Positions 37,867-45,020 of a DNA stretch of 64,000 nucleotides are shown here, piece by piece. The translations under genes and the position numbers were made by a program. Each line of letters opens with the position of its first letter. The stretch's first letter is position 1. This DNA comes from Escherichia coli (GTDB lineage Bacteria; Pseudomonadota; Gammaproteobacteria; Enterobacterales; Enterobacteriaceae), in the NCBI RefSeq assembly GCF_024223415.1, contig NZ_CP100500.1. One strand, given 5' to 3'. The notes below the pieces were generated by a model. It worked only from the letters and a program-made list of their open reading frames with translations, was not told where the DNA came from and searched no databases.

Positions 37867-40149
<2,283 letters not shown>

Positions 40150-40191
40150 TTAGATTTGACTGAAATCGTACAGTAAAAAGCGTACAATAAA

Positions 40192-40218
40192 GGCTCCACG
40201 AAAGTGGGGCCTTTTTTA
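40192..40218 (+). terminator. Rho-independent terminator after pflB
   Basis: GGCTCCACgaaaGTGGGGCC + T6. Confidence 0.7.
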
Positions 40219-40340
40219 GCACGAGAGCCTTTTTTGTCAGCTATCTATACTTTAAGGTGACTGCCAAAACAGACTCGACGTAGCCTTCGAGCTGCGCACC
40301 AACACGGCCTCAGATGGGCCACATCTGGAGAAACACCGCA

Positions 40341-41081
40341 ATGTCAGTTATTGGTCGCATTCACTCCTTTGAATCCTGTGGAACCGTAGACGGCCCGGGT
40401 ATTCGCTTTATCACCTTTTTCCAGGGCTGCCTGATGCGCTGCCTGTATTGTCATAACCGCGACACCTGGGACACGCATGGCGGTAAAGAAGTTACCGTTG
40501 AAGATTTGATGAAGGAAGTGGTGACCTATCGCCACTTTATGAACGCTTCCGGCGGCGGCGTTACCGCATCCGGCGGTGAGGCAATCCTGCAAGCTGAGTT
40601 TGTTCGTGACTGGTTCCGCGCCTGCAAAAAAGAAGGCATTCATACCTGTCTGGACACCAACGGTTTTGTTCGTCGTTACGATCCGGTGATTGATGAACTG
40701 CTGGAAGTAACCGACCTGGTAATGCTCGATCTCAAACAGATGAACGACGATATCCACCAAAATCTGGTTGGAGTTTCCAACCACCGCACGCTGGAGTTCG
40801 CCAAATATCTGGCGAATAAAAATGTGAAGGTGTGGATCCGCTACGTTGTTGTCCCAGGCTGGTCTGACGATGACGATTCAGCGCATCGCCTCGGTGAATT
40901 TACCCGTGATATGGGTAACGTTGAGAAAATCGAACTTCTCCCCTACCACGAACTGGGCAAACACAAATGGGTGGCGATGGGTGAAGAATACAAACTCGAT
41001 GGTGTTAAACCACCGAAGAAAGAAACTATGGAACGCGTGAAAGGCATTCTTGAGCAGTACGGTCATAAGGTAATGTTCTAA
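40341..41081 (+). CDS. pflA: Pyruvate formate-lyase activating enzyme (radical SAM)
   Basis: ORF track 40314..41081; start moved to [20 protein letters not shown] (246 aa); CxxxCxxC cluster motif [10 protein letters not shown]. Confidence 0.95.
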
Positions 41082-41091
41082 TTTCCCCGTA

Positions 41092-41126
41092 AAGCGGCAA
41101 CTTTATTGAGTTGCCGCTTTTTTATT
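41092..41126. terminator. Bidirectional terminator between convergent pflA and ycaM
   Basis: AAGCGGCAACtttattgaGTTGCCGCTT + T5. Confidence 0.7.
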
Positions 41127-41290
41127 CCGCGCTGCATAAATAATTCAGAGCTCTATTTCTAACGCCCTTACAGCACAGCTTCCAAATGTATTACCCAAAC
41201 CGCCAGTATATGTCCTTCGGCTTGCGCGCATTTCTCGATTATGTAAAAACGGGTCAGATCTGCCAGAGTCAGCGTCACCGACCACAATAA

Positions 41291-42721
41291 TTATTTACTA
41301 TTCGCTTTACGCGCCAGCAGCGGGAATATCAGTCCTAATCCTACCAGCACAAACGGCGTTGCAACATTCAGCGCCAACTGGAAGGTCCACTCTGCAGTGA
41401 AGGCTTCCATTTTCGGGAAGATCCCCGTCAAACAGGCAAAGGCAGTAAAGGCAAAACACCAAATCCCGACGGTCATTGCCAGAGGCTTATTACGAATAAA
41501 GACATACTCTGGTTTATATTTCTGCGCCAGGCGAACGACTGCAATAAATGCAACAAATACCCATAAATAACGCAGCGGCATCACTACCGAGTTAAGATTC
41601 AACAGCCATTTATAGAGATTGTTCATATCACCGATGCCGAGAGTCGGCAGCATAATCAGAATTGCCACCAGCACCAGGGTCAGAAAATAGCCATTAACGG
41701 GCGTACCAGAAGCGTTGGTACGACATAAACTGGCTGGAATATATTTGCTGTCAGCATCACCTAATAGCACTTTAAGCGGGGCATCAATCGAGAATACCAG
41801 CGCAGCTACTTGTCCCAGGGTATTCGCAATGGCGTAAATCACCATTAAAGTATTACCAATGTTGTAATACTCGCCCAGCTTCTGAAAGGCGTAATACTGA
41901 CCGTTAGTCATTAAGTCATCCGGGATATTACGCGAGTCAAACATCATCCCCATCGCCAGTGAGCCCAGAATGGCACAAACCGCAACCATCACCGCCAGGC
42001 ATAACATCCCTTTTGGAAATTCTTTTCCTGGGTTGCGCGTTTGATTAACGTAAGGAGAAATCTTCTCTGCTCCGCCAACCGCGAAAACCAGCATTGAAAT
42101 AGTGGTAATGTAGGTAAAGTCGATATGAGGAATGAACGTTTCCCAGGTAATGTTTGTGGTCGCAATATGCACTTCAGTAATCGCAGGCGCGGTTACCGCC
42201 ATCGCCACATACAGGAGCGACATAACAAACATCGCAATCCCTGCCACAGAACCGACGATTTTCAGCGATTTCATACCGCGTGAAGCAACCCACATAAAGA
42301 AGATAAACAGCACCAGCGTTAACCCCTGTAACGCTACGACTGAATATTCTTTGATTAGCGAACCGTCGCCTTTCATCGCCCAACCGAGCGCAATCAGTAT
42401 TGCCTGGGGTTTTTGTGCCAGATAGGGAATATGCACCACCCAGTAGGTCCACGCGGCGAGGTAAGCCAGTCCGGGTCCCATCGTGTGTTTAATCCAGGTA
42501 CTGACCCCGCCTTTCCCATCTTTGAAGGTCGAGCCTAACTGACCAACAATTAGCGCATAAGGTGTGAAATAGAGCGCAAAGATAAACACCCATGAAAAAA
42601 CAACCACCAGCCCCTGGTTGGCATAGTTATTAACAACGTTGCCAAAACCCCAGACAGTGATAAAAGACATCAGCGCAATGTTGTACCATCGCAGCTGTTT
42701 TTCCTGAACATTCCCAGCCAT
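41291..42721 (-). CDS. ycaM: APC-family amino acid transporter YcaM
   Basis: ORF track 41291..42913; start moved to internal Met MAGNVQEKQLRWYNIALMSF with AAGGA upstream (476 aa); polytopic. Confidence 0.85.
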   Translation of the reverse strand: MAGNVQEKQLRWYNIALMSFITVWGFGNVVNNYANQGLVVVFSWVFIFALYFTPYALIVGQLGSTFKDGKGGVSTWIKHTMGPGLAYLAAWTYWVVHIPYLAQKPQAILIALGWAMKGDGSLIKEYSVVALQGLTLVLFIFFMWVASRGMKSLKIVGSVAGIAMFVMSLLYVAMAVTAPAITEVHIATTNITWETFIPHIDFTYITTISMLVFAVGGAEKISPYVNQTRNPGKEFPKGMLCLAVMVAVCAILGSLAMGMMFDSRNIPDDLMTNGQYYAFQKLGEYYNIGNTLMVIYAIANTLGQVAALVFSIDAPLKVLLGDADSKYIPASLCRTNASGTPVNGYFLTLVLVAILIMLPTLGIGDMNNLYKWLLNLNSVVMPLRYLWVFVAFIAVVRLAQKYKPEYVFIRNKPLAMTVGIWCFAFTAFACLTGIFPKMEAFTAEWTFQLALNVATPFVLVGLGLIFPLLARKANSK

Positions 42722-42930
42722 AGACAAATCCTTCGCCAAAATTAAAGGGGCATCTGTAAAACGAGGGATTATGCGCGGCAAATAAGAAGTGCGGAAATAG
42801 CGAAATGCAAAATTATAACCTGCTGCACATTTTATTTTTAAACGAATAAAATTTGGAAAAAAGCAAGTCAGATAGAAGAAACAAAAAAGCAGAGTGTGAA
42901 ACAGTAAGTTCACACTCTGCTTGAATTCAT

Positions 42931-44079
42931 TTACACGTGAGCAACGGGTTTCGGCGTATGACCGGCGTTGCGAAGCAGCATCAGCAAATAGATAAACGAT
43001 ACGCTGGCGATCATGATAAACAATAAATTATCGGAGAAATTCTGCATTAGCATAGCGGTAAATGACGGGCCAAGCAGACTTCCCACGGTATAGCTCAACA
43101 GTAAGGCCTGGTTCATCGCCACCAGTTGATGATGTTCAACTTTCTCGCAAGCCCAGGCCATCGCCACCGGATATAGCGTAAAGCCAGCGGCACCGAGGAT
43201 GAATAACGCTGGGGCCATCGCCGCCTGGCTAAGCATCGCGATACTGCCGAGAATGACGACAAAGACCTGAACACGCAACACCAGCAGTCGACCAAACTTA
43301 TCCGCCAGACGTCCGATCGGCCATTGTCCGAGGATACCCGCACTGACCAGTACCGCCATCCAGAAACCAATGCTGGCATTGCTCACCCCTTTGTGATTGA
43401 GGTACAGCGGCATCAGGCCATATAGCGATCCCAGAACGATTCCTGAGATAATGCAGCCATTCACGCCAAGCCGCGCCTGACGGAGTTTTAGCATTGACGT
43501 AATTGACGTCGAATCATGGTTTTCAGCCTGCTGATTCAGGACACGCGTAAACAACAGCGGTAAGATCCCTGCCAACGTCAAACCTGTAACCCACGGCAAT
43601 ACGCTCATCAGCTCGGTTGAGACTTTGCTGACCAGTAACTGGCCTAAAAACATTCCCACGTAATAAACCATCATATACGCAGCAAGCAAACGCCCACGGT
43701 TACGTGACGTCCCACTGCACATCAGCGCGCTCTCAACGACTACCCAAATCATGGCACAGCCGACGCCCGCGACAAAACGCCACGCCAACCAGCTCCAGAA
43801 ACCAATCATCAGGCCAAGGCCGGCACAGCCAGCGGCAAAAATGAAGGAGGCCAGATAATAGCTGCGGTTAAAGCCAATGCGTTTAATGACATACCCTGTC
43901 AGCAATGTACCGACAAGGTTGCCGGTAAAATAGGATGAGCTGACAACGCCTACCTGCCATGTGGACATGTGTTCCTGGGCGAGCCAAAGCGGCACGAGTG
44001 TATTTAACACCGCGATCGCCAGAGTCAACAAAAGCAGGCCAGACAGCAAAAGCATGACAGGCCGGGTATACGTGGACAT
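42931..44079 (-). CDS. ycaD: MFS transporter YcaD
   Basis: 382 aa, 12-TM pattern. Confidence 0.88.
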
Positions 44080-44393: not shown

Positions 44394-45020
44394 ATGACCA
44401 AACCGTATGTTCGTCTTGATAAAAATGATGCTGCCGTTTTGCTTGTTGATCACCAGGCTGGTTTACTTTCCCTTGTACGGGATATAGAACCCGATAAGTT
44501 TAAAAATAACGTGCTGGCGCTGGGTGACCTGGCTAAGTATTTCAACTTACCAACTATTCTTACCACCAGTTTTGAAACCGGTCCTAACGGCCCATTAGTT
44601 CCAGAACTGAAAGCACAATTCCCCGATGCACCTTACATTGCTCGCCCGGGCAATATTAACGCCTGGGATAACGAAGATTTTGTAAAAGCAGTCAAAGCGA
44701 CAGGTAAAAAACAGTTAATTATTGCCGGTGTGGTAACCGAAGTTTGCGTGGCATTCCCGGCGCTTTCAGCCATTGAAGAAGGGTTTGATGTCTTTGTTGT
44801 GACTGACGCGTCAGGGACCTTTAATGAAATTACCCGGCATTCGGCATGGGATCGCATGTCGCAGGCAGGAGCTCAGTTGATGACGTGGTTCGGCGTGGCT
44901 TGCGAGCTGCACCGCGACTGGCGTAATGATATTGAAGGACTGGCGACGTTGTTCTCTAACCATATTCCTGATTATCGTAATTTGATGACCAGTTATGACA
45001 CGTTAACGAAGCAGAAATAA
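44394..45020 (+). CDS. ycaC: Isochorismatase-family hydrolase YcaC
   Basis: 208 aa, MTKPYVRLDKNDAAVLLVDHQAGL... Confidence 0.9.
   Translation: MTKPYVRLDKNDAAVLLVDHQAGLLSLVRDIEPDKFKNNVLALGDLAKYFNLPTILTTSFETGPNGPLVPELKAQFPDAPYIARPGNINAWDNEDFVKAVKATGKKQLIIAGVVTEVCVAFPALSAIEEGFDVFVVTDASGTFNEITRHSAWDRMSQAGAQLMTWFGVACELHRDWRNDIEGLATLFSNHIPDYRNLMTSYDTLTKQK

Follow-up and report, generated by a model that had tools for sequence, protein, structure and literature searches.

A 209-bp stretch separating pflA from ycaM in an Escherichia coli genome is very probably the scar of an old and common ycaK-ycaN deletion

The 209 bp that lie between pflA and ycaM in the window, the stretch of 64,000 nucleotides from E. 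coli contig NZ_CP100500.1 that was analyzed here, are very probably the scar of a 1.5-kb deletion from a K-12-like pflA-ycaK-ycaN-ycaM arrangement, in the form of an allele that is both old and common. The deletion would have taken nearly all of ycaK together with the first 266 codons of ycaN. It would have spared, in order from the left, the terminator of pflA, some 30 nt of the spacer between pflA and ycaK, the stop codon of ycaK and the last 36 codons of ycaN, which abut the ycaM stop codon. This deletion allele is an ordinary gene-content polymorphism, already visible in public PGAP annotation.

We identified genes from the list of open reading frames (ORFs) in the window and from NCBIfam scans, and terminators with a consensus terminator scan (Table 1). 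The coordinates of pflA and ycaM were those of the PGAP annotation, carried over from the record of E. coli SCU-316, which is 100% identical, and the name ycaM was likewise taken from PGAP because the best NCBIfam match, YjeM, was below its cut-off. The mechanically called ycaM ORF is longer, running for 540 codons (41291-42913, minus strand) from a GTG at 42913, which is 64 codons farther upstream than the ATG of the annotation (42721), and overlapping the hairpin of the ycaD terminator; the annotated ATG is the likely start. The two genes are convergent, with pflA on the plus strand and ycaM on the minus strand, and the interval between them spans 41082-41290. No ORF corresponding to ycaK (about 196 codons on the minus strand, encoding a Flavodoxin_2-type NAD(P)H oxidoreductase) was listed downstream of the pflA terminator in the window, and no full-length ycaN ORF (about 302 codons, encoding HTH_1 and LysR substrate-binding domains) was present in the interval.

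Table 1. Features of the pfl-ycaC region, in window coordinates.
Feature	Position	Strand	Basis or remark
pflB	37867-40149	+	NCBIfam equivalog cut-off reached
pflA, pyruvate formate-lyase 1 activating enzyme, intact	40341-41081	+	NCBIfam equivalog NF008356, 524 bits; PGAP coordinates
pflA intrinsic terminator	41091-41126	+	13-bp stem hairpin 41091-41120, then TTTTTT
Diverged pflA-ycaK intergenic spacer relic	41138-41167		Aligns with spacers of L006, L007 and E. albertii L008
ycaK 3' relic and deletion junction	41168-41179	-	Stop complement TTA 41168-41170, with no more than 3 diverged codons
ycaN pseudogene relic, codons 267-302 and stop	41180-41290	+	N-terminal 266 codons deleted
Weak terminator-like element for ycaM, within ycaN relic	41245-41283	-	6-bp stem 41283-41252, then U5 41249-41245
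ycaM, APC-family permease, intact	41291-42721	-	PGAP coordinates and name ("APC family permease")
ycaD terminator hairpin, 14-bp stem	42887-42922	-	Scan: hairpin on both strands, T-run on minus strand
ycaD, MFS transporter, intact	42931-44079	-	NCBIfam NF002962, 727 bits; equivalog cut-off reached
ycaC	44394-45020	+	NCBIfam equivalog cut-off reached

The gene order in K-12 DH1 is pflA, ycaK (minus strand), ycaN (plus strand) and ycaM (minus strand), with the stop codons of ycaN and ycaM abutting. This is exactly the K-12 order that the first-pass annotation of this DNA had given when it proposed that ycaK and ycaN were missing here from between convergent pflA and ycaM genes some 210 bp apart, and the comparison bore the proposal out: DH1 carries both ORFs and the window neither, the spacing by PGAP coordinates is 209 bp, and K-12 shows no direct pflA/ycaM adjacency, since ycaK and ycaN intervene. 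BLAST alignment of the window to K-12 covered 40314-41137 and 41178-43000 and broke at 41137/41178, where 40 bp of the window stand opposite 1,511 bp of K-12 (L001 2325-3835). The net difference is therefore 1,471 bp, and the roughly 2 kb first thought to be missing was an overestimate. On either side of the break the flanks are about 98% identical to K-12, with 728 of 741 nt identical in pflA and 1410 of 1431 nt in ycaM, whose product differs at one of 476 residues.

Spacer accounts for less than half of the 209 bp, as had been overlooked earlier; the larger part is a 111-bp relic of the 3' end of ycaN. This relic translates in frame as FQMYYPNRQYMSFGLRAFLDYVKTGQICQSQRHRPQ followed by a stop codon, matches the C-terminus of K-12 YcaN at 34 of 36 amino acids (107 of 111 nt), and has no start codon, no HTH and little of the substrate domain; PGAP marks it as a pseudogene, an incomplete CDS without its N-terminus, in both SCU-316 and O157:H7, and as LysR family in the latter. 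Immediately to its left, CTTACAGCACAGC in the window aligned to CTTATAGTGCATC of K-12 and of Escherichia locus L006, which corresponds to the stop and last codons of ycaK, and the deletion junction falls within 41171-41179, where two alternative alignments can be drawn. The spacer relic makes up the bulk of the 40 bp that did not align to K-12, where neither megablast nor blastn found a counterpart to it; it shares AATTCAG and TTTxTAAC/TAGC blocks with Escherichia loci L006, L007 and L008. Because an in-frame ycaN end persists along with the ycaK stop and the spacer downstream of it, an ancestor of the window allele carried both ycaK and ycaN, and it is for this reason that we read the event as a deletion.

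To count alleles, we ran three junction-specific searches against 5,426 complete E. coli genomes. The ycaK-ycaN segment was present in 3,341 genomes (62%), the window-type junction in 1,021, and a third allele, in which the pflA terminator stands against the ycaD terminator and ycaM is also lost, in 1,047; the three together account for 5,409 of the 5,426. The window-type count was made with a 241-bp query across the interval at a coverage of at least 80%, and all 1,021 junctions were 98.3-100% identical to the window, so that the earlier description of a strain-specific deletion does not hold, all the more as E. albertii apparently has the same junction. The locus in E. coli exists in three states: ycaK-ycaN-ycaM, a relic plus ycaM, and nothing between pflA and ycaD. 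O157:H7 belongs to phylogroup E, ST131 and Nissle to B2, K-12 to A, and O104:H4 and O111 to B1. A 2.6-kb pflA-ycaM query matched SCU-316 (100%) and O157:H7 (99.4%), each as a single piece. The O157:H7 allele has the same junction type, 111-bp ycaN relic and flanking genes, at 99.4-99.6% identity to the window, and differs from it in nothing of substance, although the closest relative of the window (100%) is SCU-316, an ST57 commensal of phylogroup E (PMC11251922).

The ycaM-less allele was seen in ST131 and in Nissle-like (EcN-like) strains. This B2-type allele resembles that of the window in being a deletion at the same locus that begins just past the pflA terminator, but it is larger, removing ycaM and the relics too, and was counted in 1,047 genomes as against 1,021. 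At the ST131 junction (L004 8760-8880) the pflA terminator is followed by GTGC and then by the ycaD hairpin, which forms the right edge of this deletion; the edges correspond to window positions 41126 and 42887, and the two terminators are left 4 bp apart. We also noted single genomes with further, independent damage to ycaN, namely IS1 insertions in EC96, a truncated fragment encoding part of the LysR substrate domain in 2018-11-3CC and, in metagenome contig L052, the loss of about 146 nt from within the gene. Elsewhere the locus was rearranged: E. coli E69 (CP089930.1; L022 7428-13428) has EAL and GGDEF genes after ycaM in place of pflA, and in SMS-3-5 the position where it was expected is rearranged as well.

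In that a short stretch of K-12 is missing from O157:H7-like genomes at a place flanked by conserved genes of the backbone, the case recalls the K-islands, which Perna et al. in 2001 reportedly defined as segments of K-12 that O157:H7 lacks at conserved points of the backbone. The ycaK-ycaN segment differs from these in that it is not specific to K-12, given that 62% of complete E. coli genomes have it. Our literature search found no listing of the pflA-ycaM interval as a numbered K-island, and a search for prior descriptions of a ycaK/ycaN (b0900/b0901) polymorphism returned only the paper on the YcaN regulon.

One alternative, which we consider rather less likely than not, is that the deletion was a recent, single event within E. 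coli (in the lineage leading to phylogroup E and its relatives, say) that started from a K-12-like allele, with the likeness to E. albertii arising by coincidence or parallel loss. The ycaN relic is compatible with this, being identical to K-12 at 103 of 105 to 107 of 111 nt, about the neutral divergence within E. coli, while the E. albertii relic matches K-12 at just 84 of 103, and no junction copy among the 1,021 falls below 98.3% identity to the window. What counts against a simple recent deletion is the 42-nt spacer and junction (41138-41179), which aligned to K-12 at only 44 of 60 nt (about 73%), compared with 103 of 105 for the ycaN relic in the same comparison and about 98% for the flanks; unless this tract was imported or is much older than its flanks, it is too diverged for an event within the species. 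It is about as far from E. albertii (51 of 68 nt, about 75%) as from K-12. Also against a recent origin, the E. albertii type strain (L008) runs collinear with the window through the spacer, the junction and the relic, with gaps of at most a single base, and appears to share its junction. The divergence of the tract suggests that it may be very old, or a short import, and would agree more readily with either of these than with recent loss from a K-12-like sequence, in a segment too short to settle the point.

A wider reading would make the window allele an ancient presence/absence polymorphism that E. albertii and a part of E. coli have in common, whether by descent or by introgression, with several separate losses of the module, represented by three junction types and the B2 deletion. 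We consider this unlikely as a whole. If true, it would imply repeated selection for or against a regulator located beside the pfl/focA formate-metabolism genes in lineages E and B2. All of the Escherichia representatives that lack ycaK-ycaN retain a 3' relic of ycaN, and their junctions differ: in loci L006 and L007, 16 nt of ycaK remain and ycaN begins at codon 270, and in L005 about 52 ycaN codons are left. The six sequences compared do not separate a single Escherichia deletion event from three.

We examined the deeper history of the locus by scanning species-representative genomes for YcaM, which gave 41 loci that were annotated by tblastn. In Citrobacter, Kluyvera, Yokenella, Pluralibacter and Salmonella arizonae/diarizonae, the order is ycaD-ycaM-pflA and ycaK-ycaN is absent, and the short ycaM-pflA spacers aligned from these (50-215 bp) contained no ycaN-like sequence. 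Other cargo occupies the ycaM/pflA junction in several Citrobacter and Kluyvera loci (L010 7419-13207, L012, L032 and L041; L015, L020 and L033), consisting in some species of a 264-aa PA3715-family gene alone and in others of this gene plus a 5-kb island with PTS (ascorbate-type) IIA/IIB/IIC, split transketolase and RpiR genes. Pseudocitrobacter corydidari (L046 2217-5930) has ycaK-ycaN between pflA and ycaD, with no ycaM and with YcaN at 79% identity; a further LysR regulator and a gene of the choloylglycine-hydrolase family (CBAH) come before the pair. The divergent ycaK-ycaN pair was also found in unrelated contexts, in Hafnia alvei and in a Budviciaceae genome. Finally, an enterobacterial SRA contig (SRR26188688_33327; L051) carries pflA-ycaK-ycaN-ycaM collinear with K-12 at 77% nucleotide identity (amino acid identities of 68% for YcaK, 85% for YcaN and 96% for YcaM), which means that the K-12 arrangement exists in a lineage far more distant than E. 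albertii.

These comparisons bear on the insertion in K-12 that was also raised by the first-pass annotation, taken here to mean that the window shows an ancestral empty site and that ycaK-ycaN was inserted in the K-12 (A/B1) lineage. The relic-free ycaM-pflA adjacency in other genera, the occurrence of the pair in unrelated contexts in Hafnia alvei and Budviciaceae, and the GC content of ycaK (43%) and ycaN (47%) relative to pflB-pflA (50.5%) would all suit such an insertion. It could not, however, create an in-frame end of ycaN, 36 codons long, and a ycaK stop region in an allele that had been empty, and the collinear L051 contig, together with the pair in the same pflA-ycaD interval of Pseudocitrobacter, indicates that the module was at the pflA site before the K-12 lineage arose. 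We rejected a recent insertion in K-12 on the survival of relics of both genes in the window, and regard the empty-site reading as very improbable; it holds at most for a much deeper ancestor. At that depth there is some truth in it, as the relic-free neighbors in other genera point to ycaK-ycaN being accessory cargo at a variable site, and the parsimonious reading of the sequences would be that this cargo was present in the Escherichia ancestor and has been lost more than once since. As for an artefact of assembly or collapse, the finding of the same junction (98.3-100% identical) in 1,021 genomes that were finished independently and a consistent PGAP annotation leave it practically no credibility.

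Chromosomes of Enterobacteriaceae have hotspots at which accessory genes come and go between core genes that are conserved. The pflA-ycaM locus is like these in that its cargo differs by genus (ycaK-ycaN; PA3715-family; PTS/transketolase/RpiR; LysR plus CBAH), and unlike them in having no integrase, tRNA, IS or flanking repeat and in the tiny size of the cargo (0.8-5.8 kb). On a small scale, it illustrates how deletions recur at a variable site flanked by conserved operons.

With respect to mechanism, the K-12 segment contains ycaK and ycaN only, and we found no transposase, integrase, inverted repeats or target-site duplication flanking it. Repeats across the segment are at most 22 nt long (about 73-100% identity) and none brackets the ends of the module. 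A mobile-element origin was therefore rejected, there being no IS, integrase or flanking repeats. Microhomology at the breakpoints was also discarded as a candidate: K-12 has an imperfect direct repeat matching at 8 of 10 positions, which was equaled in 308 of 2,000 shuffles and is not significant. The right breakpoints of the Escherichia deletion variants cluster in or beside a 13-nt quasi-palindrome in K-12 ycaN (CTGGAAGACTGGA ... TCCAGGCTTCCAG; 92% complementary, with a 10-nt loop) located at L001 3808-3843, about codons 257-268, and the B2 deletion spans exactly from terminator hairpin to terminator hairpin. We infer that hairpin-associated illegitimate, RecA-independent recombination is the most likely origin of the deletion.

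In K-12, YcaN is reported to regulate adjacent genes, and a ycaN mutant showed reduced ycaC, increased ycaD and focA, and a formate phenotype (PMC9068703). As the window allele lacks both YcaK, the NAD(P)H oxidoreductase, and YcaN, the LysR regulator, any YcaN-dependent control of ycaC, ycaD and focA would be absent from this strain. YcaK and YcaN are missing from about 38% of complete E. coli genomes, O157:H7 and ST131 among them, so K-12 is not representative here, and conclusions drawn on YcaN in K-12 with respect to ycaC, ycaD, focA and formate use (PMC9068703) are not transferable to such lineages. With its three clean alleles, the locus could act as a simple lineage marker; past such bookkeeping, the polymorphism has little significance.

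We also examined the interval for RNA features. Rfam covariance models gave no match at E<=1 over window positions 40000-43200, and a hidden RNA gene was rejected on this ground and on an unremarkable plus-strand fold (z = -0.9); the minus-strand fold (z = -3.9) includes the pflA terminator hairpin. A promoter within the ycaN relic was likewise rejected, with one 9/12 match at chance level. The scan called a single hairpin in the interval, that of the pflA terminator, which is dominant in the RNA fold and conserved in K-12, ST131 and other Escherichia loci. The bidirectional terminator that had been proposed here found support on one strand of the two: on the plus strand the T-run was called, and on the minus strand the stem is followed by just TTT and no terminator was called. 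The genes pflA and ycaM would converge on this one hairpin terminator. The minus-strand element within the ycaN relic was not called by the scan and had no covariation support in a 6-sequence alignment (term +1.09). It forms a consensus hairpin in the fold of that alignment, with TTTT(T/C)ACATAATCGAGAAA conserved, and we speculate that this predicted hairpin and its U5 run could end ycaM transcripts.
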